Source of the DNA: a virus
Strand: one strand, 5' to 3'
Virus record (IMG/VR): IMGVR_UViG_2867359821_000001
Coordinates: 5,093-69,092 of that record
Length of the DNA stretch: 64,000 bases
Part shown: positions 2,830-36,961 of the stretch, piece after piece
Numbering within the stretch: the first letter of the stretch is position 1
Layout of the letters: every line of letters begins with the position of its first letter
The notes under the pieces: model-generated
Told to the model about the DNA's origin: nothing
The model's database searches: none
Seen by the model: only the letters and a program-made list of their open reading frames with translations
Made by a program: the position numbers and the translations under genes

Positions 2830-4263
2830 CTATTTCGTCTTGCCAGCCTTCGGCATTGAGGCCTCGAACTCGGCGTTCGCCGCCAGCAGTTGCTCCAACG
2901 CAGGATCGGCGAGGAGATCCGCATCGAGCGACTCTTGCTCGGCGGTCGGCGGCGCGGGGGGCGCATCCTTCGGTTCGGCCCACAGCCACGGTGCGCCCTT
3001 CTTGCCAAGGATCGCGGCGTCGACCAGCGTCTTGACGATCCCGCGGATGTCCTGGCCGCGCCCGTTCGGCGAGAAGGCGTTCACGCTGAATGCCTCGTTG
3101 GGCATGTTGTTGATCCAGATGGAGTTGAGGTGCGCGCCACCCAAGAGGTGAGGCTCGATCACCTTGAAGAAGTCCTTCACCTGCTCGCGGGTCCACTGGT
3201 GCTTCTCGCTCATCAGGTCGTGGTAGACGCCGGCGAGAACGCGCAGCATGGCGGGGGAGCCCAGGAGAGTGGTCGACCGCAGTGTCTCGACCGAGACTTG
3301 GCCGATCTTCATCGCCTCAAGCTGCGGGAACGTCTCGGACACGAGGTCGAGGAACGAGCGCGCATCCTCGGCGACCTTCTGATCACCGAGGATTCGCTCC
3401 TGCACCTTGCCGATTCGGCCTTCAAGCCCCACCTGCACGGCGCGGATGATGTCGGCGACGTGGCGTGCGGTGGCGTAGTCACTGCTGTTGCGCTTCAGGC
3501 GATCGTTTTCGAGGTCAACGCGCTTGTCGAGAAGGGGGTGCTCGAGCACGGTGGGCAGCGCACGGTTGACGACCTTGAAGCTGTCGAAGCGTGAGCGCAC
3601 GGAGGCGGTGATGCCGAGCGCATTGTCTGCGATGTCGAAGAACATCTGACGGTACTCACGGGTGTCGTCGGTCACCTGTAGTTCGACGGAGACGCGCTCT
3701 GAGCTGAAGCGATCCTCGAGTGATCGGGCGGCGCGCAGGGCGGCCTCGGCTTCGCGGACGGCCGACGAGGTCTTGTCTCCGTGCTCGGCGCGCATGGCCC
3801 GTGCTCGGAAGTCCTGCGCCTTCTCGATTTGCTGGGCGATCAGCTGTAGTGCGATATGGAAGCCGAGGATACGGTGTTGGCCGTCAAGGATCTGAATCTT
3901 TGAGGCGGAGCGCTTCGGGTAGGACATGACGCCCCACTGCGCGAAGCCGTCCGAGGGCTCCATCTCGGAATCGAACTTGAAGATGGAGGGTGCCCGCAGG
4001 ATGATGCCGGGAATGACCCAGCTCTCGCGCGAGAGGTAGTAGTCGGCGAAGGCCTTCGCGTGGTTCTCCCGGATGGCGCGGTTGCCAGGGTTCGGGACGC
4101 TCGGATCCGGGCGCGGAACCATGTTGACGATCTGTGCGGGGGACAGCGAAAGCCCGAAGACCGTGCGCCCACCCTGCTTATAGCGGGTCGCGTACGTCTG
4201 CTCTTCGGTCGCGATCCCAGCGACAACGCGGTCGCGTGTCGGTTCAGTAACGGTTTTGGCCAC
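2830..4263 (-). CDS. DGQHR-domain protein (DndB/DpdB-like, ParB/Srx superfamily)
   Basis: 477 aa. KIQILDGQHRILGF (DGQHR motif) and QMFFDIADNALG (F-x-D-x-N motif typical of DndB). Own upstream motif copy and downstream hairpin. Confidence 0.7.
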   Translation of the reverse strand: MAKTVTEPTRDRVVAGIATEEQTYATRYKQGGRTVFGLSLSPAQIVNMVPRPDPSVPNPGNRAIRENHAKAFADYYLSRESWVIPGIILRAPSIFKFDSEMEPSDGFAQWGVMSYPKRSASKIQILDGQHRILGFHIALQLIAQQIEKAQDFRARAMRAEHGDKTSSAVREAEAALRAARSLEDRFSSERVSVELQVTDDTREYRQMFFDIADNALGITASVRSRFDSFKVVNRALPTVLEHPLLDKRVDLENDRLKRNSSDYATARHVADIIRAVQVGLEGRIGKVQERILGDQKVAEDARSFLDLVSETFPQLEAMKIGQVSVETLRSTTLLGSPAMLRVLAGVYHDLMSEKHQWTREQVKDFFKVIEPHLLGGAHLNSIWINNMPNEAFSVNAFSPNGRGQDIRGIVKTLVDAAILGKKGAPWLWAEPKDAPPAPPTAEQESLDADLLADPALEQLLAANAEFEASMPKAGKTK

Positions 4264-4631: not shown

Positions 4632-5225
4632 CCGGTGACCGGCGATGACGTCCGCCTTCGCCTCCAGCTCGGCCAGCGTGCCGTCATTCAGGAGGGTCGA
4701 GTGGAAGTCGTCCGCCGACACTGAGTTCTCGCTGGCGTGCGCCGCGGTTCCAGCTGTGGGGGCATGGACACCTGGACGCTCGATCCAGAGGGCCTGACCA
4801 CCGAGCTGCGCGATCATCCTGACTTCGTTGGGGAAGCGGATGCCGGTCACCACGACAGGGTGGCCGGCGGCGCGGTGATCGTCGATCTTCCGGGCCATGA
4901 TCTGCACCCAGACGTTCTCGCCGATCATGTTGCGGCCGACCTCCGTCCCGAGCTGCTGCAGCAAGCGCCGCACCTCGGGAATCTTCTTCGCCTCTACGTA
5001 CCCGACCTCCGCGATCAGCTCGGAGTATCTAGCGAATTCCACCTCGGTGTCGTAAACGTTCCCGTAAGCCTCGACGATCGGGTCGATCGCGAGCATGGCC
5101 TCGTGGAGTGCGTCCGACATCCCGAGCTTGACGTATCCGTGCTTGTCGACCAGGCGATCGGCGAATGCGTCCTTGCCGGAGCGGAGGCGACCGCCGAGAC
5201 CAATGAGGGGTTGCGAGAGGTTCAT
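4554..5225 (-). CDS. deoxynucleoside monophosphate (dNMP) kinase
   Basis: Start trimmed to MNLSQPLIGLGGRLRSGKDAFADRL (P-loop GxxxxGKD typical of phage dNMP kinases). ATG at 5223-5225 overlaps upstream stop (ATGA). Confidence 0.65.
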   Translation of the reverse strand: MNLSQPLIGLGGRLRSGKDAFADRLVDKHGYVKLGMSDALHEAMLAIDPIVEAYGNVYDTEVEFARYSELIAEVGYVEAKKIPEVRRLLQQLGTEVGRNMIGENVWVQIMARKIDDHRAAGHPVVVTGIRFPNEVRMIAQLGGQALWIERPGVHAPTAGTAAHASENSVSADDFHSTLLNDGTLAELEAKADVIAGHRSGERKVPFDVAFEDDGDPEELRHSM

Positions 5226-12547: not shown

Positions 12548-12630
12548 GAATGGTGCTCCCTTGTCTGTGCGTGGGTGTGGTCTGCGCCAAAACTTAGGCG
12601 TGTAATTCACCATACATGATGTTTAAGGGC

Positions 12631-12646
12631 GTGGGAAGAGTCCCAC
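12631..12646. promoter_or_regulatory. palindromic operator-like site GTGGGAagagTCCCAC
   Basis: 6-bp inverted arms, near-identical second copy at 13471-13486. Confidence 0.35.
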
Positions 12647-12801: not shown

Positions 12802-13014
12802 TCACTCGGCCGGTGCGTCGGTGCGGTACATCCGCGAGGCGGCGGTGGCCATGATGCCGAGGGCGTCGCCGATCTCGGCCCACGTCATGCCGGCCTGGCG
12901 GGCGGCGTGGATCGCTGCCCAGCGGGTGCGCCGGTAGTTCTCGGCGCGGAGCGCGATCAGGCGCTGCTCGGCGGCGGCTCGGGACGGGCTCTCGTTGGAC
13001 ATGATGTTCATCAT
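12802..13014 (-). CDS. small helix-turn-helix DNA-binding protein (candidate immunity/regulatory protein)
   Basis: C-terminal 65-70 aa of long spurious ORF: MNIMSNESPSRAAAEQRLIALRAENYRRTRWAAIHAARQAGMTWAEIGDALGIMATAASRMYRTD, sigma-r4/LuxR-like HTH. Confidence 0.45.
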   Translation of the reverse strand: MMNIMSNESPSRAAAEQRLIALRAENYRRTRWAAIHAARQAGMTWAEIGDALGIMATAASRMYRTDAPAE

Positions 13015-15082: not shown

Positions 15083-15615
15083 GCACCAACAGCCTCACCT
15101 ACGCACAAGCCACCGGCATCACGTCCGACGCACAGCGCAACCGGATCGCCGCCGACCACGCCCGCTATCAGCAGGCCTTGAAGGCGGCGTCGCGGGCCGT
15201 TCTCGACGGGTATGACGCCCTGGCCGTTCTCGACGGGTATGACGCCCTGGCCGCTCACGCCTATGAATCGGCGCGCAGGGTCGCTCACGTCGCCTCGACG
15301 CACGGCAACCCCGGCCCACTGATCGACCAACTCGAACGGGCCTACGCCGACGACAGCGAGGACGAGGGCGCGCTCATGGCTGTCTGGGCTCGCGTGCGTC
15401 GCCGCCTACCTGGCAGTGACGGCGCTCCGCGCCTGGCTGATGCTGTGAGCCTCACTGCCGAAGATCACAGATCTAAAGCGGGGGAGTCAGACCGTCGAGC
15501 GCTGCGCGCGCACTCACCCGCCGAAAGTCGTGCACTGCGACGGGAAGCACGCGAACACCGTCTGTCGGCTCTGCTGGCTGAGTATCACCTGTCAGACAGC
15601 CCGACCCGAGTTTAA
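15079..15615 (+). CDS. hypothetical protein (178 aa) with internal tandem repeat
   Basis: Contains AVLDGYDALAVLDGYDALA from 27-bp x2 DNA repeat. Confidence 0.45.
   Translation: MSTNSLTYAQATGITSDAQRNRIAADHARYQQALKAASRAVLDGYDALAVLDGYDALAAHAYESARRVAHVASTHGNPGPLIDQLERAYADDSEDEGALMAVWARVRRRLPGSDGAPRLADAVSLTAEDHRSKAGESDRRALRAHSPAESRALRREAREHRLSALLAEYHLSDSPTRV
15196..15249 (+). repeat. perfect 27-bp tandem duplication (GCCGTTCTCGACGGGTATGACGCCCTG x2)
   Basis: seen directly in sequence inside CDS 15079..15615. Confidence 0.9.
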
Positions 15616-15739
15616 GACGCAAATCTTGAGGTATCACACGCACGCACGTCGCGAGGTTGAGCGGACAGCCGCGAGCCACCTGGAGAGAGTTATCCACAGC
15701 CCTTTTCACACCGCCTTTCCCGCAAGTTTGCACACACCT

Positions 15740-16180
15740 CCCTAGACCCCTCTACATATCTACTCTTCAACAGTATGAATGTAGTAGTAGAGGTTTGTGT
15801 GTGTAGAGCGTTGAACCCCTCTCCCTTGAAACCATTGGGATCGCGAGGCTCTCAGGAACCTCCCAGCCTTACACATACCCGTTTTTTACACATTCACGCC
15901 TCAACATTCAACACGTAGTGCCGACACAGCCTATCTGCAAATTGTTGAGGCTAACAGTCCAAATGTAGAAATGGCGTGAAGCTCATGTGTAAGAAAACGT
16001 GAATGTGTACTTCGGCGCGAATATGTAGCAGCATCTGGCGCGACATCGCCAGCCGACTTATCCACAGCCCTTCGTTACCCAACCGTGACCGAAAACAAGC
16101 GGCTAACTGTTGAACATCTAGTTCAACATCGCTACTGTTGAACTACTGGGCAACGAAGCCACCCCCACACGAAACGGAGA
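15740..16180. promoter_or_regulatory. AT-rich (about 45% GC) non-coding region with iteron-like repeats; candidate operator cluster and/or replication origin
   Basis: No ORF >=60 aa. Repeated TGTTGAAC (15810, 16108, 16136) with inverted GTTCAAC (16121). ATGTAG x3, TACACAT x2, CAACATTCAACAC. Confidence 0.45.
16110..16138 (+). promoter_or_regulatory. sigma-70-like promoter TTGAAC-N17-TACTGT overlapping palindrome GTTGAACatctaGTTCAAC
   Basis: -35/-10 spacing 17 nt; 7-bp perfect inverted arms at 16109-16127; about 45 nt upstream of gene at 16187. Confidence 0.45.
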
Positions 16181-16186
16181 ATGACC

Positions 16187-16309
16187 ATGGCACGACAGGA
16201 CCCGAAGCGGACCGCGCAGAGCAAGCAGCAGACCATCGCCCGCCGTCAGGCTCGCGCCGTTCGTGAGCGCCAGACGTTCCGCACCACGGCCTCCGGCCGC
16301 GCTCGCTGA
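16187..16309 (+). CDS. small arginine-rich basic protein (40 aa)
   Basis: MARQDPKRTAQSKQQTIARRQARAVRERQTFRTTASGRAR; GGAGA RBS 7 nt upstream. Confidence 0.4.
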   Translation: MARQDPKRTAQSKQQTIARRQARAVRERQTFRTTASGRAR

Positions 16310-16364
16310 TCCTCCCGGTTTAGCCCCTAAATTCTCTCCACCACCACACATCCTGGAGCACATC

Positions 16365-31081: not shown

Positions 31082-31227
31082 ACGAGGAAGAGGAGACGGC
31101 CACGCCGTACCAGGTGTACGTGTTCGACTGCCCGAGGTGCGGCGGTCGGACGGAGATCGGCGATCAGGATCCGGCCGCCGTTGAGGAGTGCGCGGATTGC
31201 GGCGTAGATGTGGTGATGGGCCGATGA
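31078..31227 (+). CDS. zinc-ribbon protein (49 aa)
   Basis: MNEEEETATPYQVYVFDCPRCGGRTEIGDQDPAAVEECADCGVDVVMGR: two CxxC pairs. Confidence 0.4.
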   Translation: MNEEEETATPYQVYVFDCPRCGGRTEIGDQDPAAVEECADCGVDVVMGR

Positions 31228-31229
31228 CG

Positions 31230-31541
31230 TCACTGACCGCGGCTCGCGCGCCAGGCCTCGATGCGCCGTCGGCGCTCCAGCCAGTCGCGCGTCTGCAGGA
31301 TACCCTCCGGGTCGACGTGGGCACGGAGCACTCGGTCGCATTGGCCGTCGAAGTCGGCGTCGGCACCCAACTTCACGGGCTCGCGCTCGAGGAAAACGAC
31401 CGCCTCGAAGAAAGGGTGGCGGGCGCGACCGATGCGGACCTGCTCGATCCGTCCGATGAGCGCACCATCGAGCTTGACCTGCCACTCGGGCGGCCGACGG
31501 GGGTCGAGCTGGGTCTGGGTGACAGCGAGACGGGAGTCCAT
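31230..31541 (-). CDS. hypothetical protein (104 aa), minus-strand gene embedded in plus-strand region
   Basis: MDSRLAVTQTQLDPRRPPEWQVKLDGALIGRIEQVRIGRARHPFFEAVVF... has protein-like composition, whereas overlapping plus frames are R/S-rich. Confidence 0.4.
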   Translation of the reverse strand: MDSRLAVTQTQLDPRRPPEWQVKLDGALIGRIEQVRIGRARHPFFEAVVFLEREPVKLGADADFDGQCDRVLRAHVDPEGILQTRDWLERRRRIEAWRASRGQ

Positions 31542-31622
31542 GGTCGCAATGTAGCCCGAGCCCCCCGCACAGCGAATCCGGCGAGGATCAAAGCTCTCCA
31601 CGAGGAAGGTCTCGACGCTAAG

Positions 31623-31943
31623 GTGATCGCCCAGCGCACAGGGCTCAGTGAGAGGCAGGTGCATCGGTGGCTCGGCAGAATGTTCGGCGAGGGGTGGCAG
31701 CGGATGCCGCGCGTGAGCCCGGTGGCAAAGGCGCGGGTGCTCCAGTTGAGCGCCGAGCAGGTGCCGCCGGATTGGATCGCCGAGACGGTCAAAATCAGCC
31801 GCACAGCCGTCGACAAGATCCGCGAGAAGGCGGGATTGAATCTCGATCAGGAATGGAAGGTCGTTCGCCTGGCCATCCAGCACGACGCGAAGCTCTTCAA
31901 CCTGCACAAGCAGTTCAGCCCCACCTCTACCCGGAGACTGTGA
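31623..31943 (+). CDS. helix-turn-helix DNA-binding protein (about 106 aa)
   Basis: GTG start; VIAQRTGLSERQVHRWLGRM classic HTH. Confidence 0.4.
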   Translation: MIAQRTGLSERQVHRWLGRMFGEGWQRMPRVSPVAKARVLQLSAEQVPPDWIAETVKISRTAVDKIREKAGLNLDQEWKVVRLAIQHDAKLFNLHKQFSPTSTRRL

Positions 31944-31962
31944 TGGGGGTTATCCAGGATGG

Positions 31963-32181
31963 ATGACCACTGACGAAAAGATTCAAGCCGTCGAGGAATT
32001 CCTCGCATGGCGGGAGAACGCCCACCCCACGACCGCCCCCATCCAGCTCGTCGAGACCTGGCGCGCCGCTCTCCAAGCCGTCGATGACGCGGCGCTGCTC
32101 GCGGACATCCGCAAGGAGGCTGCGTTTGTCAGCACCTCGGATGAAGCGCTGGCGCTGGTGGAGAGGATCGCTCGTGGTTAG
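31963..32181 (+). CDS. hypothetical protein (72 aa)
   Basis: ORF-track ORF. Confidence 0.4.
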   Translation: MTTDEKIQAVEEFLAWRENAHPTTAPIQLVETWRAALQAVDDAALLADIRKEAAFVSTSDEALALVERIARG

Positions 32182-32548
32182 GCACAAGCACGGGCGCCGC
32201 CCTTTTAAGCCCTTCACTGACGCGCTGGCCGCCGCCAACGAGAACGAGAACGCTCCCCAGCCGTACTGCATCGACCTCCCGGAGAAGTACGTCGACTACG
32301 AGGTGGGCCAGCATCCCGACGAACATACTGCGGCAGCGATGTGCGCGCCGTGCCCCCTGCTCGAGCTGTGCAACATCAACGCTCGTCAACAGTTGCCGGA
32401 GCACGGCGTGTGGGGCGGGATCGCCTGGGTGAACCGCCGGCAGGCCCACCTGCTGCCGATCGAAGAGAAGGTCGTAACGCTGACAGTGGTCGCCGTGGAC
32501 GCGGGGCCCGCGTCCACGGCGATCGCAGGCGTGCTCGAAGCGGCCTAA
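32174..32548 (+). CDS. whiB: WhiB-family transcriptional regulator (Fe-S)
   Basis: Four Cys (YCIDLP, CAPC, LELC) followed by GVWGG motif; GTG start after GGAGAGGA. Confidence 0.55.
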   Translation: MVRHKHGRRPFKPFTDALAAANENENAPQPYCIDLPEKYVDYEVGQHPDEHTAAAMCAPCPLLELCNINARQQLPEHGVWGGIAWVNRRQAHLLPIEEKVVTLTVVAVDAGPASTAIAGVLEAA

Positions 32549-32579
32549 ACAAAATGTCCAAGAAATAACGTTCAGATCC

Positions 32580-32608
32580 TTGACCTGTCCGGCGGGGATG
32601 TGTAATTT
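32580..32608 (+). promoter_or_regulatory. near-consensus sigma-70/SigA promoter TTGACC-N17-TAATTT
   Basis: seen directly; unusual in a 67% GC genome; drives 270-bp non-coding structured region upstream of gene 32882. Confidence 0.55.
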
Positions 32609-32880
32609 AGTTCTTGTTCCACTACGGGACACAGAAGCCAGATCACACACGAACGGGGACCATGATGAACGGATGCGGAGGCCTTCCAAGGAGGAGGCCG
32701 GGATGCGCCAAGCATCCCGAGAAGTCACTGGCAGCGAGGGCGAAGCGCCCGCCGGTGAACACCAAGCGTTCGAGGTGGGTGGCTCGCTAACGACCTGCCA
32801 CCCGCCTCGAATTAAGCGCGTATTACACATCTAGACTGGTCGAACGCCCCGCGCACGACCACGGCAAAAGGGAGAAGCAC
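32609..32880 (+). ncRNA. candidate structured leader / small RNA (no convincing ORF)
   Basis: Hairpins GGGATGCgccaaGCATCCC (about 32696-32714), GGGCGaagCGCCC, GGTGGGTGGC...GCCACCCGCC (about 32776-32808). Flanked by inverted 10-mers GATGTGTAAT (32597-32606) / ATTACACATC (32822-32831). ORF 32580..32834 has poor composition. Confidence 0.3.
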
Positions 32881-32881
32881 C

Positions 32882-33205
32882 ATGAGCATGACCATTGAAG
32901 AGATGGTGGCCCGGAGGGTTCACCTCGACGAGCAGATCGCCCGTCTGACGGACGAGAAGAAGCAGATCGACGAGAAGCTCCGCGAAGAGCACGACTACGG
33001 AACGATCCCCGCCGGTGAATGGCGGGTCAGCATCGGCCGCAACCCTCAGTTCCTGAAGGAAGACTTCGAAAAGCGCTTCCCGGTCGCCATGTACCCGCAC
33101 CTCTACAAGCCGGTGCCGGACACCGCTCAGGTCAAGGAGTTTTTCGCCCCCGTGGAGCTGAAGAAGTTCTACGCCGAAGGCGCCAAGAAGATCACGGTCA
33201 AGTGA
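32882..33205 (+). CDS. hypothetical protein (107 aa)
   Basis: AAAGGGAGAAGCACC before ATG; Lys/Glu-rich. Confidence 0.5.
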   Translation: MSMTIEEMVARRVHLDEQIARLTDEKKQIDEKLREEHDYGTIPAGEWRVSIGRNPQFLKEDFEKRFPVAMYPHLYKPVPDTAQVKEFFAPVELKKFYAEGAKKITVK

Positions 33206-33789
33206 TGAGCGCCACCACTCTCGCCCCGCCGCTCGACGGCCTGCGCTACGAGGTAGTCCACGCGATCGACGAGACCGAGGACTACACCGAAGGCGAATCG
33301 CGCCGCCTCACTGACGACATCGCCGAAGCGAACGTGATCACGTCGCGCGTCTCCGGCGAGGAGAACCTCCACAAGGTGATCCTTGATATCGACTTCCCGG
33401 CCAAGCTCGTGCCCTCGAGCACAGACGGCCACTTCCACTTGTACATCGACAAGGCCATCCACTGGGAGGCATACGTCGACCTGCTCGGCGCGATGGCGGA
33501 TGCCGGCCTGGTCGAGGAGGGCTACGTCTCGGCATCACTCGAGCGCGGTCACACTGCCGCCCGCCTGCCGTGGGTGAAGAAGTCCGACGGGCCGCGCCCC
33601 ATCTGCGTCGGGTGCCGCAAGCGACCCCACGAGTTCTCCACGTACCGCTACATGGTCGCGGAGGATGGATACGCCGACGCCGACGAGGCGGTGCGTCGCA
33701 ACGAAGGCACCTACAACCGCGAGAACGGCCACTTCTGGTGCGACGGCTGCTACATCCGCGCCGGTCAGCCGCTGGGGGTCGCGCAGTGA
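33205..33789 (+). CDS. hypothetical protein (194 aa) with C-terminal Cys cluster
   Basis: ICVGCRKRPHE...HFWCDGCYIRAG; trimmed start ATG 33205. Confidence 0.45.
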   Translation: MSATTLAPPLDGLRYEVVHAIDETEDYTEGESRRLTDDIAEANVITSRVSGEENLHKVILDIDFPAKLVPSSTDGHFHLYIDKAIHWEAYVDLLGAMADAGLVEEGYVSASLERGHTAARLPWVKKSDGPRPICVGCRKRPHEFSTYRYMVAEDGYADADEAVRRNEGTYNRENGHFWCDGCYIRAGQPLGVAQ

Positions 33790-34202
33790 GCGCCATCACG
33801 ATCGCCTACGGCCCGACCGCTTCCGGCAAGTCGACCGCGGCTCACGCCTGGCGGAAGGAGGCGCAGAGTGCGGACCTCCAGCGTGTCATCATCGACGAGG
33901 CCACGTTCAGCGCCGCCGAGCTGCGCCGCGTCGACAACCTGCTCGACGGCGGGACGGACGTCTGGCTCAACTATCTGACCGATGCGGCCGAGCCCGCGCT
34001 GCCCAGCTTCCCGAATCACGATGTCGCGATCCGGCGTTTCCACCGACGGATGCATGATGCCGTGCGTACGTACGGACTGATGCAGGAGTGCAATGGTGTC
34101 GCGATCTACGCTCCCAACCCTTACCGCGAGGAGCTGTGGGGAGACGTGAATCCTGAATGGATGTGCGCCTGCCAGCGGTACGAGGCGGCGATGGACATAT
34201 GA
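33786..34202 (+). CDS. P-loop NTPase (138 aa)
   Basis: Walker A GPTASGKST; GTGA overlap start. Confidence 0.5.
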   Translation: MSAITIAYGPTASGKSTAAHAWRKEAQSADLQRVIIDEATFSAAELRRVDNLLDGGTDVWLNYLTDAAEPALPSFPNHDVAIRRFHRRMHDAVRTYGLMQECNGVAIYAPNPYREELWGDVNPEWMCACQRYEAAMDI

Positions 34203-34378
34203 GCGCCCACGACCTGAACTCGGCCGACTACGAGCGGATTGAGGCCGCCCTCCGCCACCTCATCCCCGAGACCAAGCGCACCGCTGCCAAGTGGCACCCG
34301 AAGGGGCTGCGGGCCTTCAACCGCACGCTCCGCAAGATCGAGCGGATCAACAAGACCGGAGAGTTCACCCAGCAATGA
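34199..34378 (+). CDS. small protein (59 aa)
   Basis: MSAHDLNSADYERIEAALRHLIPETKR... Confidence 0.35.
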   Translation: MSAHDLNSADYERIEAALRHLIPETKRTAAKWHPKGLRAFNRTLRKIERINKTGEFTQQ

Positions 34379-35079
34379 CAAACCCCGTCCGCGCCGAGAT
34401 CGACGCCATCCTCGAGAAGGCAATGATCGGCGAGCCCCGCAACATGCAGCAGGCGATGGGGCCCAGTGAGATCGGGTCCGACTGCGACCACTGCGTCGCC
34501 GCCAAGCTCGCGGGCTGGGTCCAGATGGACGAGGCCGCATGGCTGCCGTGGGTCGGCACCGCCATGCACGCCTACCTCGAGGGCGTCTTCAAGAACCTCA
34601 CCGACTGGCTCACGGAAACGCGCGTCTGGGTCACCTCCGAGATTCCCGGCACGTCCGACCTTTTCCACATCCCCACCCGCACTGTCGTCGACTGGAAGCT
34701 GGTCGGCGCCACCACGCTGAAGAGCGCCAAGCGCGGCCCGACGCCGCAGTATCGCGTCCAGGCTCACGGCTACGGCCTCGGATTCTTCCGCGCCGGCTTC
34801 GACGTGCAGAACGTCGCCATCTATTACCTGCCGCGCAACGCGATCAGCCTCAAGTCCGGCATCTTCTGGTCCGAAGAGTGGGATCCCATGGTCGCACTCA
34901 ACGCGCTCGACCGCCTCGACGAGATCCGGGCGACTCTCGCGAAGTTCCGCACCACCGAAGCTCGCGATGCGTACATCAGCGGCCTGCCCCGCGCAGACCA
35001 CTGCTGGGACTGCCATCGCTACCCCGACGCCCCCAAGGCGGCGGCTCCAAGCTCCCTGGAAGCCATGATCGGCCTCTAG
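34375..35079 (+). CDS. Cas4/RecB-like PD-(D/E)xK exonuclease with Fe-S cysteines
   Basis: N-terminal SDCDHC, VVDWKLV (D-x-K), QYRVQAHGY (Q-x-x-x-Y), C-terminal CWDCHRYPD. Confidence 0.6.
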   Translation: MTNPVRAEIDAILEKAMIGEPRNMQQAMGPSEIGSDCDHCVAAKLAGWVQMDEAAWLPWVGTAMHAYLEGVFKNLTDWLTETRVWVTSEIPGTSDLFHIPTRTVVDWKLVGATTLKSAKRGPTPQYRVQAHGYGLGFFRAGFDVQNVAIYYLPRNAISLKSGIFWSEEWDPMVALNALDRLDEIRATLAKFRTTEARDAYISGLPRADHCWDCHRYPDAPKAAAPSSLEAMIGL

Positions 35080-35118: not shown

Positions 35119-35823
35119 ATGAACGAATCCCTCGACGACCTGCTGGCAGGCGGCGGAAAGACTGCGAAGTTCGAAACCGTCGGCACGCGCTGGAGCGGCG
35201 TGGTCACCAAGGCGGAGCCCCGCCAGGCGACGAACTTCGACACCGGCAAGCCCGACTTCTGGGACGATGGCCAGCCCAAAATGCAGGCGGTCGTCTCGAT
35301 CCAGACGGACGAGCGCATCGACGAGACCGACGACGGCGTCCGCGCCATCTACATCAAGATGTGGGGCGACCAGAAGAAGGCGTTCCGTCTCGCTGCGCAG
35401 GCGGCCGGCGGATCCCCGAAGCCCGGTGACACGTTCACCGCGACCTACATCGCCGACGGCGAGAAGCCGCAGCGTGGCTTCGCTCCGAAGATCTTCAAGT
35501 ACGAGATCCAGAAGGCCAGCGCGCTGGACGCGATCGTCAACGGCACCGCACCCGCGGTGCAGCAGCCGGTCGCTCAGCAGCCGGTCGCTCAGCAGCCGGT
35601 CGCTCAGCAGGTGCAGCAGCCGGTCGCTCAGGCGGCCCCGGTGCAGCAAGCCGTGAACGTGCCGCAGGCAGGGCTCACCGCCCAGCAGGAGGCTCAGGTG
35701 AAGCTGCTGATCGGGAAGTCCCTCGAGGACGACGCGATCGCCGCGGTCATCGACGGCGCGACGCCCCAGGCCATCCAGGCGGTGCGCCTGCAGCTCGCAG
35801 CCGCGAGCAGCAACGGCTTCTGA
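35119..35823 (+). CDS. hypothetical protein (234 aa) with Gln/Pro/Val/Ala tandem repeats; possible ssDNA-binding/recombination partner of upstream exonuclease
   Basis: QQPVAQQPVAQQPVAQQVQQPVAQ repeat; function by position only. Confidence 0.4.
   Translation: MNESLDDLLAGGGKTAKFETVGTRWSGVVTKAEPRQATNFDTGKPDFWDDGQPKMQAVVSIQTDERIDETDDGVRAIYIKMWGDQKKAFRLAAQAAGGSPKPGDTFTATYIADGEKPQRGFAPKIFKYEIQKASALDAIVNGTAPAVQQPVAQQPVAQQPVAQQVQQPVAQAAPVQQAVNVPQAGLTAQQEAQVKLLIGKSLEDDAIAAVIDGATPQAIQAVRLQLAAASSNGF
35560..35628 (+). repeat. 15-nt tandem repeat (CAGCAGCCGGTCGCT) x3 + 1 spaced copy
   Basis: seen directly inside CDS 35119..35823. Confidence 0.85.
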
Positions 35824-36016: not shown

Positions 36017-36961
36017 ATGTTCCTGTTCATCCTCGCGATCATCCTCGCGATCATCGCAGTCGTCGGCGTGTTCGTCGCCACATCCTCAAAGGATCTGCGC
36101 TTCGGCGCGATCATCACCACCGCAATCACAGCGCTGGGCGCCATCATCGCTATCTTCTTCGCCACCTTCTACGCCAACGGCGTCGGTGAGGCGAAGGTCA
36201 AGGTCAGCTCCGTCGACCGGCAGGTCGTCGGGACTGTTGAAGAGCCTGGATCCGGCTTCAGAGCGCCGTGGGAAGACTTCGTCGAGTTCGACCTGTTCTC
36301 TCAGGAGCTGCTGTTCGCCGGCAGTGACGGCGGCGCCCCGAGCTACACCGGCGGCACGGTCAACGGCCGCGAGATCACCGTCTCTGTCGGCGGCGTCTCG
36401 GGCGGCTCCACGCAAGCCCAAGTCGACATGACCTTCGTCTACTCCGTGAACGCCGACGCCATCAAAGAGATCTACTCGGAGTACCGGTCGCAGGAGCGGT
36501 TCACTGAGCAGATCGTGACCCGCCAGGTGCTCTCGATCTCTCGGCAGGTGCCCTCCGAGTACAGCGCCATCGAGTTCCGCGGCTCCAAGCGAGGCGAGGC
36601 CGAGACGCGCATCCTCGACGCGCTCAACGAGAAGCTGGGCAAGTACGGGGTCGAATTCTCTGCGGTGACCATTCAGGACGTGCGATTCTCTGAGGACGTC
36701 GAGAAGTCGCTCACGTCCATCGAGCAGGCCAACCAGAAGGCGCAGGAGGCCGAGGCCAACCAGCGCACGAAGGAAGTCGAGAATGAGACGCTGATCGCAT
36801 CCGCTCAGGCTGAGGCGGACGCCAACAAGATCCTGTCGCAGTCGCTGTCGGCACCCGTGCTGCAGCAGCGCTACCTCGACACACTGGCGAAGCTCGCCAA
36901 GGAGGGCAACCTCGTGGTCGTCCCCGAGGGCTTCAACGGCCTGGTGAACGTCGGCAAGTAG
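36017..36961 (+). CDS. SPFH/band-7 (stomatin/prohibitin-like) membrane protein
   Basis: N-terminal TM segments then VDRQVVGTVEEPGSGFRAPWEDFVEFDLFSQELLF... and coiled-coil C-half, 314 aa. Confidence 0.6.
   Translation: MFLFILAIILAIIAVVGVFVATSSKDLRFGAIITTAITALGAIIAIFFATFYANGVGEAKVKVSSVDRQVVGTVEEPGSGFRAPWEDFVEFDLFSQELLFAGSDGGAPSYTGGTVNGREITVSVGGVSGGSTQAQVDMTFVYSVNADAIKEIYSEYRSQERFTEQIVTRQVLSISRQVPSEYSAIEFRGSKRGEAETRILDALNEKLGKYGVEFSAVTIQDVRFSEDVEKSLTSIEQANQKAQEAEANQRTKEVENETLIASAQAEADANKILSQSLSAPVLQQRYLDTLAKLAKEGNLVVVPEGFNGLVNVGK

Follow-up and report, generated by a model that had tools for sequence, protein, structure and literature searches.

What occupies a stretch that gene annotation leaves empty between a WhiB-like regulator gene and the recombination genes of a prophage? 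The question is raised by positions 32549-32881 of a 64,000-nucleotide (nt) stretch of viral DNA, hereafter the window, which comprises positions 5,093 to 69,092 of IMG/VR record IMGVR_UViG_2867359821_000001 and is a prophage in a Microbacterium chromosome. An initial annotation had proposed a promoter that drives a structured non-coding region bracketed by inverted 10-mers. The reading put forward here, with somewhat better than even confidence, is that of an operator-controlled early promoter (P1), the first cistron of which would be a new micropeptide gene on a structured mRNA heading the recombination operon (Table 1).

The comparison was based on the contigs carrying homologues of the 107-amino acid (aa) protein encoded directly downstream, supplemented by one genome match, two metagenome matches and one viral-contig match. 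This yielded 11 distinct versions of the region, namely group 1 (the window, L003/L066, L004, L005 and L006), group 2 (L007/L008, L009/L010 and L064) and the single lineages L061, L062/L063 and L071. In all loci, the WhiB gene is followed by the element and then by recombination genes, and in all 11 versions the gap of 227-345 nt after the WhiB gene is empty in the source annotations. Mean pairwise identity within group 1 was about 40-55% in neutral parts (WhiB 3' end, 0.41; promoter spacer, 0.54; 5' untranslated region (UTR), 0.49). The parts held constant were the -35 hexamer (1.00), a 25-nt block from the left 10-mer to the predicted transcription start (0.98), the first 12 codons of a small open reading frame (ORF; 0.92) and the box of the right 10-mer (0.91).

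This small ORF of 41 codons plus TAA (MNGCGGLPRRRPGCAKHPEKSLAARAKRPPVNTKRSRWVAR) is open in all loci. Its coding signature overturned the initial view that the element holds no credible ORF and is non-coding. Pooled over group 1, the ratio of nonsynonymous to synonymous polymorphism (pN/pS) was 0.44 in its frame, as compared to 1.04 and 1.64 in the other two frames; the corresponding values of the bona fide 107-aa gene were 0.46, 1.41 and 1.62. The ratio was below 1 in all 35 informative pairs, those between groups included. Three N-terminal Gly codons vary between GGA, GGG, GGT and GGC among lineages, and a Leu codon between CUU and UUA, with the amino acids unchanged. The stop codon may be TAA, TAG or TGA, and these occupy a single alignment column. 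In addition, a G-rich Shine-Dalgarno (SD) sequence precedes the ATG by 3-9 nt in all lineages. The predicted peptides are 38-41 aa long, with an isoelectric point (pI) of 12, 11-13 Arg and Lys residues and 0-1 acidic residues. They share the pattern M-x-G-x-G-G-L/I-x-R-R ... K-R-T/S-R-W/Y-A/V, and these motifs persist at about 45% identity, where synonymous sites are saturated. In L071, the stop codon overlaps the start codon of the next gene (ATGA), and AGGAGG in the last codons of the small ORF serves as the SD of that gene, which shares its PHROG exonuclease family with the window gene at 34291-35079 and is followed by a gene for a Sak4-like annealing protein. Overlap and in-ORF SD are the usual arrangement of translationally coupled real genes. 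With an SD and start codon, purifying selection in a single frame and a conserved stop position found together, the interpretation best supported by the comparative data is that the first cistron is translated and yields a new, basic micropeptide.

The longer ORF that had been named initially (32580-32834) lies in a different frame, with an off-frame pN/pS of 1.64, and is interrupted by a stop codon in L004. The signal of GC content at third codon positions (GC3), which marks the genes on either side, breaks down from about 32560 to about 32860, which explains why neither the initial annotation nor gene callers saw a gene. The peptide matched nothing in Pfam and PHROGs at E ≤ 10, nothing in profile or single-sequence searches of 5.8 billion clustered proteins and 1.84 billion representatives, and nothing by tblastn in 50,697 phage records. 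Scanning viral contigs with the back-translated N-terminus of the small ORF revealed one true relative, L071. Three other matches (L075, L076 and L080) were rejected as false positives, lying out of frame inside longer coding sequences, and a profile-based search for small-ORF loci in viral contigs found nothing.

The presence of TTGACC and TAATTT at a distance of 17 nt upstream of the small ORF was confirmed. The -35 hexamer matches TTGACA at five of six positions and the -10 hexamer matches TATAAT at only three of six, so that "near-consensus" had overstated the case, as is also evident from a simple sigma-70 scanner, which did not call P1; TAATTT does fit the actinobacterial TAnnnT. The promoter had also been called exceptional for a genome of 67% GC. 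It is indeed the only TTGAC-N18-TAnnnT in 64 kb on either strand, but 0.22 occurrences were expected and 20 of 100 shuffles contained at least one, which is modest evidence alone, and the GC content of the window is about 65%. Support was obtained from conservation instead. Hexamers and spacing are kept in the 11 distinct sequences from six lineages, with TTGACC/TAATTT in group 1, TTGACA/TAGATT in L007 and L009, TTGACC/TAAATT in L064, TTGACA/TAGCCT in L061 and TTGCAC/TAGAGT in L063, each with a 17-nt spacer, and TTGACC/TATGGT with an 18-nt spacer in L071. The spacer sequence, in contrast, drifts; in group 1, identity was 100% for the -35, 54% for the 5' half of the spacer and 98% for the -10 block. 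Such a pattern, with the hexamers and their distance held and the sequence between them free to drift, is what marks a functional promoter of the housekeeping-sigma class. Thus, judged by conservation, P1 is a real promoter of the housekeeping-sigma (sigma-70/SigA) type, with a TTGACA-like -35, a spacer within the usual 16-18 nt and a TAnnnT -10. Transcription would start at about 32615-32616, as placed from the -10 geometry only. Upstream of the -35, AAGAAA(T/A) recurs in most lineages, distant ones included.

A scan of viral contigs with TTGAC-N13-ATGTGTAR-N0-1-TTTA returned 50 matches, all in low-GC genomes and none with the small ORF; these were set aside as chance or generic promoters. 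At the other end of the element, TAGACT may, with low confidence, be the -10 of a weak second promoter (P2). By eye, a TAnnnT stands at the equivalent place in L061 (TAGACT), L007 (TACAGT), L009 (TAACGT), L064 (TAGGCT) and L063 (TACGGT); the candidate has no -35 and is absent in L071. An antisense promoter at the right 10-mer was rejected, also by eye, since each would-be -10 sequence (TAATAC, TAAATC and TAAGTG) ends in a base other than T and no more than 12 nt separate it from the -35-like TCGACC. Upstream of P1, the last 60 nt of the WhiB-like gene contain a perfect 16-bp palindrome (TCGCCGTGGACGCGGG C CCCGCGTCCACGGCGA; 32490-32522), which may be a terminator or processing site of the upstream operon. 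It is not conserved in the group-1 relatives, but a hairpin of some kind occurs towards the 3' end of WhiB in several other lineages.

The inverted 10-mers were found as described, GATGTGTAAT over the P1 -10 and its inverse ATTACACATC 225 nt downstream (start to start), each within a block conserved in group 1 (32597-32621, 98% identical; 32822-32843, 91% identical). A distant perfect inverted 10-mer arose in 18 of 1000 shuffles of the region, and the 10-mer with at most one mismatch is not enriched in the window. Its 8-mer core, ATGTGTAA, has five exact copies in the 64 kb, as compared to 0.11 expected, and none of 100 shuffles reached five. These copies lie on both strands and are confined to two intergenic regions, the element and a distal cluster within 140 bp. 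In L063, the arms are copies of a self-palindromic ATTAG-N4-CTAAT, one abutting the -35 and one about 53 nt before the downstream gene; with a third, intergenic copy 2.6 kb away, six matches were counted vs. 0.28 expected. L071 has a perfect 16-bp palindrome over spacer and -10. An over-represented short motif on both strands at intergenic and promoter positions is characteristic of operators. Since the left 10-mer lies upstream of the predicted transcription start, it would be missing from the P1 transcript, where the right arm is left without this partner. The inverted 10-mers therefore fit lineage-specific putative operators rather than an RNA helix, and of the three roles suggested initially for the region (small RNA, riboswitch-like leader or operator pair), an operator pair suits them best. 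Candidate regulators encoded nearby are the HTH_23 protein (31188-31943), WhiB and a 70-aa HTH_23-like ORF (12805-13014).

The distal cluster lies in a 560-bp low-GC, repeat-rich intergenic region (15616-16180; GC 0.53 at 15501-16000), which looks like the main control region or the origin of the prophage; a sigma-70-like promoter was not called there by the simple scanner. This region also holds TTATCCACAGCCCTT twice (at about 15688 and 16058), GTTGAAC/GTTCAAC inverted repeats (16108-16150) and CCTCTAC...GTAGAGG (15749-15792). Immediately downstream of it, a second very basic ORF of 42 codons (MTMARQDPKRTAQSKQQTIARRQARAVRERQTFRTTASGRAR; 16182-16310, plus strand) carries an SD and appears unannotated; it has no sequence similarity to the small ORF at 32665-32790. 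In the gap at the switch from minus- to plus-strand genes (12560-12640), two near-copies of the 10-mer with two mismatches each, GGCGTGTAAT (12597) and GATGTTTAAG (12618), may be fortuitous or may represent degenerate sites of the same regulator. In L063, a tRNA-Asn(GUU) gene carried by the phage (5415-5488) directly precedes the third palindromic operator-like copy.

Five hairpins (H1-H5) were predicted by RNAalifold on the five group-1 sequences, and minimum free energy (MFE) folds were added for each lineage. In the group-1 structure, 92.7% of cells pair, as compared to 39-51% with slid partners, and seven pairs change on both sides, a number reached by one of 500 shuffles, as compared to 0-2 in controls. 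The stable hairpins reported initially were confirmed; the stem GGGATGC/GCATCCC (32700-32706/32712-32718), here H3, extends to 8 bp through C32699-G32719, and the others include a 15-bp stem (H5). H3 is the strongest case, with a hairpin of -14 to -30 kcal/mol beginning 4-6 nt after AGGAGG in every lineage. A structure-registered table was used for H3, as the MAFFT alignment placed the stems in different registers. In this table, all stem positions pair in nine lineages, and positions 4 and 5 are occupied by four types of pair. The stem reads GGGACGC/GCGUCCC in L071, and three pairs changed on both sides within group 1. In the window, an Arg to Cys change (CGC>UGC) on the 5' arm is matched by an Arg to His change (CGU>CAU) on the 3' arm, so that pairing is preserved at the expense of the amino acids. 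By this measure, the hairpins inside the coding sequence are under selection. H2 was not evident in the MFE folds of group 2. In the other lineages, the stop codon of the small ORF coincides with or adjoins a hairpin.

The sequence preceding H3 is constrained as well. Codons 9-10, an Arg-Arg pair, read AGG-AGG in every lineage, although in 23 prophage genes AGG accounts for 5.1% of Arg codons and AGG-AGG for none of the 51 Arg-Arg dicodons. Its invariance against codon usage argues that AGGAGG, a perfect SD sequence, is selected as nucleotides. It also amounts to a run of potentially regulatory codons, AGG-AGG(-AGG), in a short upstream ORF of predicted translation, as known from leader peptides. 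The constant distance between AGGAGG and H3 suggests that a dwelling ribosome would cover the 5' arm of H3. Two other uses of the site were rejected. As SD of a nested ORF it would require an ATG, which is found 8 nt downstream in the window only and not in L003 to L009. For a frameshift product, both alternative frames had a pN/pS of at least 1 and unconserved stops.

From the sequence, a predicted transcription start, a predicted translation product, a putative binder of the 8-mer and presumed roles of hairpins and peptide can be joined into one model. The region would be the start of a regulated transcription unit of the prophage, probably early or delayed-early. P1 would fire rightwards from about 32615, and the first cistron would be the 41-codon ORF with its own SD, specifying a basic peptide rich in Arg, Lys, Gly and Pro, and not the annotated 107-aa gene. 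The transcript would run on into the 107-aa gene and the genes for the exonuclease and the annealing/single-stranded DNA-binding (SSB)-like protein. The 10-mers would be DNA sites for a phage regulator, one over the P1 -10 and the other about 50 nt before the downstream gene, and their occupancy would shut P1, as expected of a promoter of lytic functions in a lysogen. AGG-AGG, placed 4-6 nt before a GC-rich hairpin, may slow ribosomes or make the hairpin depend on ribosome occupancy. This arrangement would tune either the amount of peptide or the transcription or translation reaching the downstream genes; the stability of the mRNA is another property that the hairpins may affect. Of the initial suggestion that the region is a leader for the gene at 32882, the location at the 5' end of the recombination operon stands and the riboswitch-like nature does not.

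Several observations weigh against this model. The covariation stems from few sequences, and the structure tested was derived from the same alignment of five group-1 sequences. H5 is not followed by a U-tract. A duplex between the leader and the downstream SD was no better than in shuffles, except in L009 (p ~ 0.04), and this SD did not become consistently more accessible when a ribosome footprint was masked over AGG-AGG or over the stop codon. L009, L064 and L061 have a degenerate right-hand 8-mer or none, L071 lacks the right box, and a repressor binding ATGTGTAA was not identifiable by Pfam on the genes around the 15.9 kb cluster. The small ORF was annotated by no gene caller in any source, and high-GC DNA yields long open frames by chance. 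Moreover, L061 (MTGCGGIPRRK*) and L063 (MGYKRRRRA*) have only short forms of 9-11 codons, which argues that the full peptide is dispensable there. These short forms argue for a role of the 5' part in cis, and the conserved C-terminus and the coupling in L071 argue for a functional product.

How far can the ORF be understood through its leader position rather than its product? It might be only a ribosome track, with pausing at AGG-AGG reporting the supply of tRNA-Arg(CCU) or translation capacity, and with the pause picking either the downstream hairpin (H3, or the single hairpin of the short forms) or the hairpin at the stop codon, which would set read-through into the recombination genes. Such a leader-peptide attenuator would account for AGG-AGG being kept against codon usage, for the hairpin that follows within a ribosome footprint in all lineages, for the stop codon in or next to a hairpin and for the short forms, which retain SD, ATG, AGG-AGG and hairpin; polycysteine short ORFs (sORFs) provide an actinobacterial precedent (10.1101/834739). 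However, no U-tract was found after any hairpin, a terminator scan of the plus strand here found none, and the MFE folds contain no conserved alternative pairing, so the terminator and antiterminator of attenuators of the trp, his or pyr type were not recovered. Nor was there consistent sequestration of the ribosome binding site (RBS) that a ribosome would release, as in the ermC or mycobacterial Cys-sORF type. Furthermore, the C-terminal K-R-T/S-R-W-A/V is conserved through synonymous changes, L071 couples the ORF straight to the next gene without a hairpin between them, and no tRNA genes were found in the 64-kb window and hence no phage-encoded tRNA-Arg(CCU). A pure attenuator is thus regarded as possible, though rather unlikely. 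If the pI of 12, the Arg-rich composition and the neighbouring conserved hairpins where an early operon begins are stressed instead, the peptide might be an RNA-binding antiterminator like lambda N or an autoregulator binding its own leader hairpins. The hairpin loops are conserved in neither sequence nor length, no boxA- or boxB-like motif was identified and the peptide has only 9-11 aa in two lineages, leaving this idea with little credence. There is also a speculative and rather doubtful extension of the micropeptide reading, in which the gene doubles as a new phage regulatory leader, with an AGG-AGG pause one ribosome footprint before a covarying hairpin, a second hairpin holding the stop codon and the peptide possibly feeding back on its own mRNA. 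In L009, CCCCUCCCGGU inside the small ORF (2904-2914) is perfectly complementary to the SD region of the downstream gene (ACCGGGAGG, 2987-2995) and also complementary to the SD of the small ORF itself (GGGAGGGG, 2837-2844); a lineage-specific RBS-sequestration switch, not shared by the other lineages, is possible there.

The remaining alternatives concern the RNA and DNA without the peptide. A non-coding structured RNA, either a small RNA or a riboswitch-like leader as proposed initially, would make the open frame incidental, which would agree with the covarying hairpins, the lack of annotated genes and the frequency of random open frames at 65% GC. It is improbable, since the coding signature is as strong as in a bona fide gene and appears in this frame only, SD and ATG are conserved, the stop type varies within one column, the ATGA overlap exists in L071 and amino-acid motifs outlast the saturation of synonymous sites. 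The structured stretch is, moreover, mostly coding sequence of the 41-codon ORF, and the Rfam covariance-model search that had been recommended, made with Rfam 15 over 31500-34000 at E ≤ 10, gave no family match and only two noise matches outside the element, far below gathering thresholds. Pairing of the inverted 10-mers as RNA, in read-through from the WhiB operon, could close a domain by a long-range helix, e.g., as a processing site. Perfect complementarity over 10 nt in the window and 13 nt in L063, a G:C to T:A change at the outer position in L007 and the common strand of all upstream genes would be in line with this. Against it stand the occurrence of the same 8-mer on both strands at 15.9 kb, the self-palindromic arms of L063 with a third copy elsewhere, the degenerate arms in L009, L064 and L061 and the position of the left arm outside the P1 transcript. 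A helix of 10-13 bp is also short for RNase III, and such pairing is considered very unlikely. An invertible switch, in which a recombinase flips the promoter-bearing segment between the repeats, is scarcely credible. Inverted repeats do flank a segment of about 215 bp next to, or containing, the promoter, but all 11 independent sequences show one orientation, the left repeat of the window falls within the promoter and leaves the -35 outside, several lineages lack the repeats, and no recombinase domain was found among the neighbours, as an inverton would require.

The element lies within a gene order typical of phages. The GC3-based gene map shows minus-strand genes at about 2.2-12.6 kb, a long plus-strand block at about 14.3-42.3 kb, which includes the element and upstream of it only genes of the same strand, and large minus-strand genes from 42.8 kb. 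A 72-aa ORF was placed between the genes for the HTH_23 protein (31188-31943) and the WhiB-like regulator (32174-32548). An exact copy of the 107-aa protein was found on one 3.68-Mb contig of an unclassified Microbacterium (RBHX01000001.1; GCA_003626735.1). Homologues of this protein are rare (10 clusters among 5.8 billion); it matched neither Pfam nor PHROG, and its AlphaFold model was too poor for a fold search (predicted local distance difference test (pLDDT), 64.7; predicted template modelling score (pTM), 0.40). Annotated phage genomes contained nothing similar to the region, the 107-aa protein or the small ORF (megablast, blastn and tblastn). The cassette of L066 (1-347) is almost identical to that of L003 (2660-3012), and the L066 downstream protein (P0009) is of the group-2 type, with 52% identity to the window protein. 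As a group-1 element is joined to a group-2-type downstream gene, the cassette is mosaic and recombines as a module, with a recombination junction indicated within the 5' end of the 107-aa gene. The downstream module also comprises a phrog_10893 member after the 107-aa gene and a Band_7 protein. The latter (SPFH/Band_7; 36017-36961, plus strand; Pfam E = 4e-23; PHROG 'lipoprotein') lies in the early/replication block and adjoins the module in the source annotation too. Near the left end of the window, a 476-aa protein with a DndB domain (DNA-sulfur modification-associated; 2830-4263, minus strand; Pfam E = 2e-25) may be the product of a defence or anti-defence gene of the prophage or its flank.

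Table 1. Features of the element and of its surroundings, with positions in the window.
Feature	Position	Strand	Remarks
Distal ATGTGTAA cluster	15869-76(-), 15886-93(-), 15985-92(+)		plus variant ATGTGTAC at 16003-10(+); within 140 bp
HTH_23 protein, 251 aa	31188-31943		upstream of WhiB-like gene; candidate binder nearby
WhiB-like regulator gene	32174-32548	+	Pfam PF02467 (E = 1.4e-7), PHROG WhiB-like families, GC3 frame plot; GTG start inferred from GC3 switch
A/T-rich stretch AAACAAAATGTCCAAGAAATAAC...	32549-32579	+	UP-element-like (inferred function); 70% mean pairwise identity in group 1 vs. 41% in adjacent WhiB 3' end
P1 -35 hexamer TTGACC	32580-32585	+	invariant in group 1; TTGACA, TTGACC or TTGCAC elsewhere
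Left 10-mer GATGTGTAAT	32597-32606	+	core ATGTGTAA at 32598-32605; overlaps P1 -10; operator-like
P1 -10 hexamer TAATTT (TAnnnT)	32603-32608	+	17 nt after -35
H1, UGUUCC-ACUAC-GGGACA	32615-32631	+	5'-terminal in predicted P1 transcript; 87% of cells paired
SD of small ORF, GGGGA	32655-32659	+	G-rich in all lineages
Small ORF, 41 codons + TAA	32665-32790	+	unannotated; alternative ATG at 32662
H2, GGCCUUC-CAAGGA-GGAGGCC	32680-32699	+	sequesters part of AGGAGG (group 1); 97% paired; only G-C/G-U changes
AGG AGG AGG, Arg codons 9-11	32689-32697	+	AGGAGG invariant; SD-like and rare-codon pair
H3, CGGGAUGC-GCCAA-GCAUCCCG	32699-32719	+	starts few nt after AGGAGG; stem noted initially
H4, inside small ORF	32731-32756	+	88% of cells paired, with 1 two-sided pair change; seen in group 1 only
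H5, 15-bp stem 32769-32783/32797-32811	32769-32811	+	stop codon (32788-32790) in loop; 94% paired; 3 pairs changed on both sides
Conserved AATTAAGCG after H5	32810-32818	+	kept in group 1, L061 and L007 (TTTTAAGCG)
Right 10-mer, ATTACACATC on plus strand (GATGTGTAAT on minus strand)	32822-32831	-	second operator-like site; core 32823-32830
TAGACT, candidate -10 of P2	32832-32837	+	directly 3' of right 10-mer; by-eye comparison
SD of 107-aa gene, AAGGGAGA	32868-32875	+	invariant in group 1
107-aa gene	32882-33205	+	first annotated gene of recombination module; GC3; 10 homologues
Exonuclease, phrog_1674	34291-35079	+	downstream of 107-aa gene; PHROG match for 34291-35076
SSB/annealing-like protein, phrog_1911	35119-35823	+	after exonuclease

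As a whole, the feature is of familiar kinds, since a regulated phage promoter and a small phage gene with a structured mRNA are both common; its unusual, conserved part is, by comparison of the lineages, AGG-AGG with a hairpin inside the coding sequence. Annotation pipelines left the stretch empty in spite of a conserved gene and control elements, and neither Pfam nor PHROGs nor two billion-scale protein collections contain the peptide family, just as Rfam lacks the RNA structure. The locus is thus a concrete example of what is missed in actinobacterial phages and prophages. It is also a compact example of constraints from protein coding and RNA structure acting on the same bases, as in the paired Arg to Cys and Arg to His changes. 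The cassette of promoter, operator and sORF heading a Microbacterium phage recombination module may serve studies of how prophage genes are controlled, or become a part for regulated expression. If the regulatory-leader extension were true, expression of recombination and replication genes would depend on ribosome speed, i.e., on tRNA-Arg(CCU) supply or the translational capacity of the host.

Mycobacterial polycysteine sORF attenuators are leaderless, a duplex sequesters the downstream RBS, and the position of the ribosome on the sORF was proposed to control the structure (Canestrari et al., 10.1101/834739). The window resembles this system in having an unannotated short ORF first in an actinobacterial operon, with a codon run for one amino acid and an mRNA duplex in the leader. 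It differs in that the sORF has a 5' UTR and an SD, the peptide is conserved beyond the Arg run, and RBS sequestration was looked for in this element and not found. Given the negative results on sequestration and unmasking of the SD, the Cys-sORF mechanism is a functional analogue at most and does not imply family membership. It is known from the EcoVIII restriction endonuclease (PMC6456624) that rare Arg codons in tandem, if close to the N-terminus, throttle or tune translation. The small ORF likewise keeps two consecutive rare Arg codons near its N-terminus against codon usage. Unlike in EcoVIII or tandem AGG-AGG in E. coli, the pair doubles as a perfect SD-like hexamer, and a hairpin comes after it in every case. 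Spanjaard and van Duin reportedly observed in 1988 that tandem AGG-AGG leads to stalling or +1 frameshifting in E. coli. In contrast to such frameshifting, the window has no conserved alternative-frame product, and the host is a high-GC actinobacterium.

In phage lambda, the N protein (107 aa) acts through an arginine-rich motif on an RNA hairpin of nut. The window peptide is similarly a small, very basic, Arg-rich product encoded first after a predicted early promoter and beside conserved RNA hairpins; it differs in lacking conserved loop sequences and boxA/boxB, in its length of 41 aa and in showing no sequence similarity. The early promoters of temperate phages are controlled by repressors, as are lambda PL/PR with OL/OR and Pleft of mycobacteriophage L5 with its gp71 operators. 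Unlike in these phages, the putative site of the window is an asymmetric 8-mer found once at the promoter and once, inverted, about 225 bp downstream, and its 5-6 copies in 64 kb compare to dozens of stoperators of the L5 type. As in lambda and L5, a strong promoter of housekeeping-sigma type heads early recombination and replication genes, a short (here putative) regulator site covers the core promoter, with extra copies elsewhere in the genome, and the sequence of the site varies between related phages, with the promoter architecture being kept.

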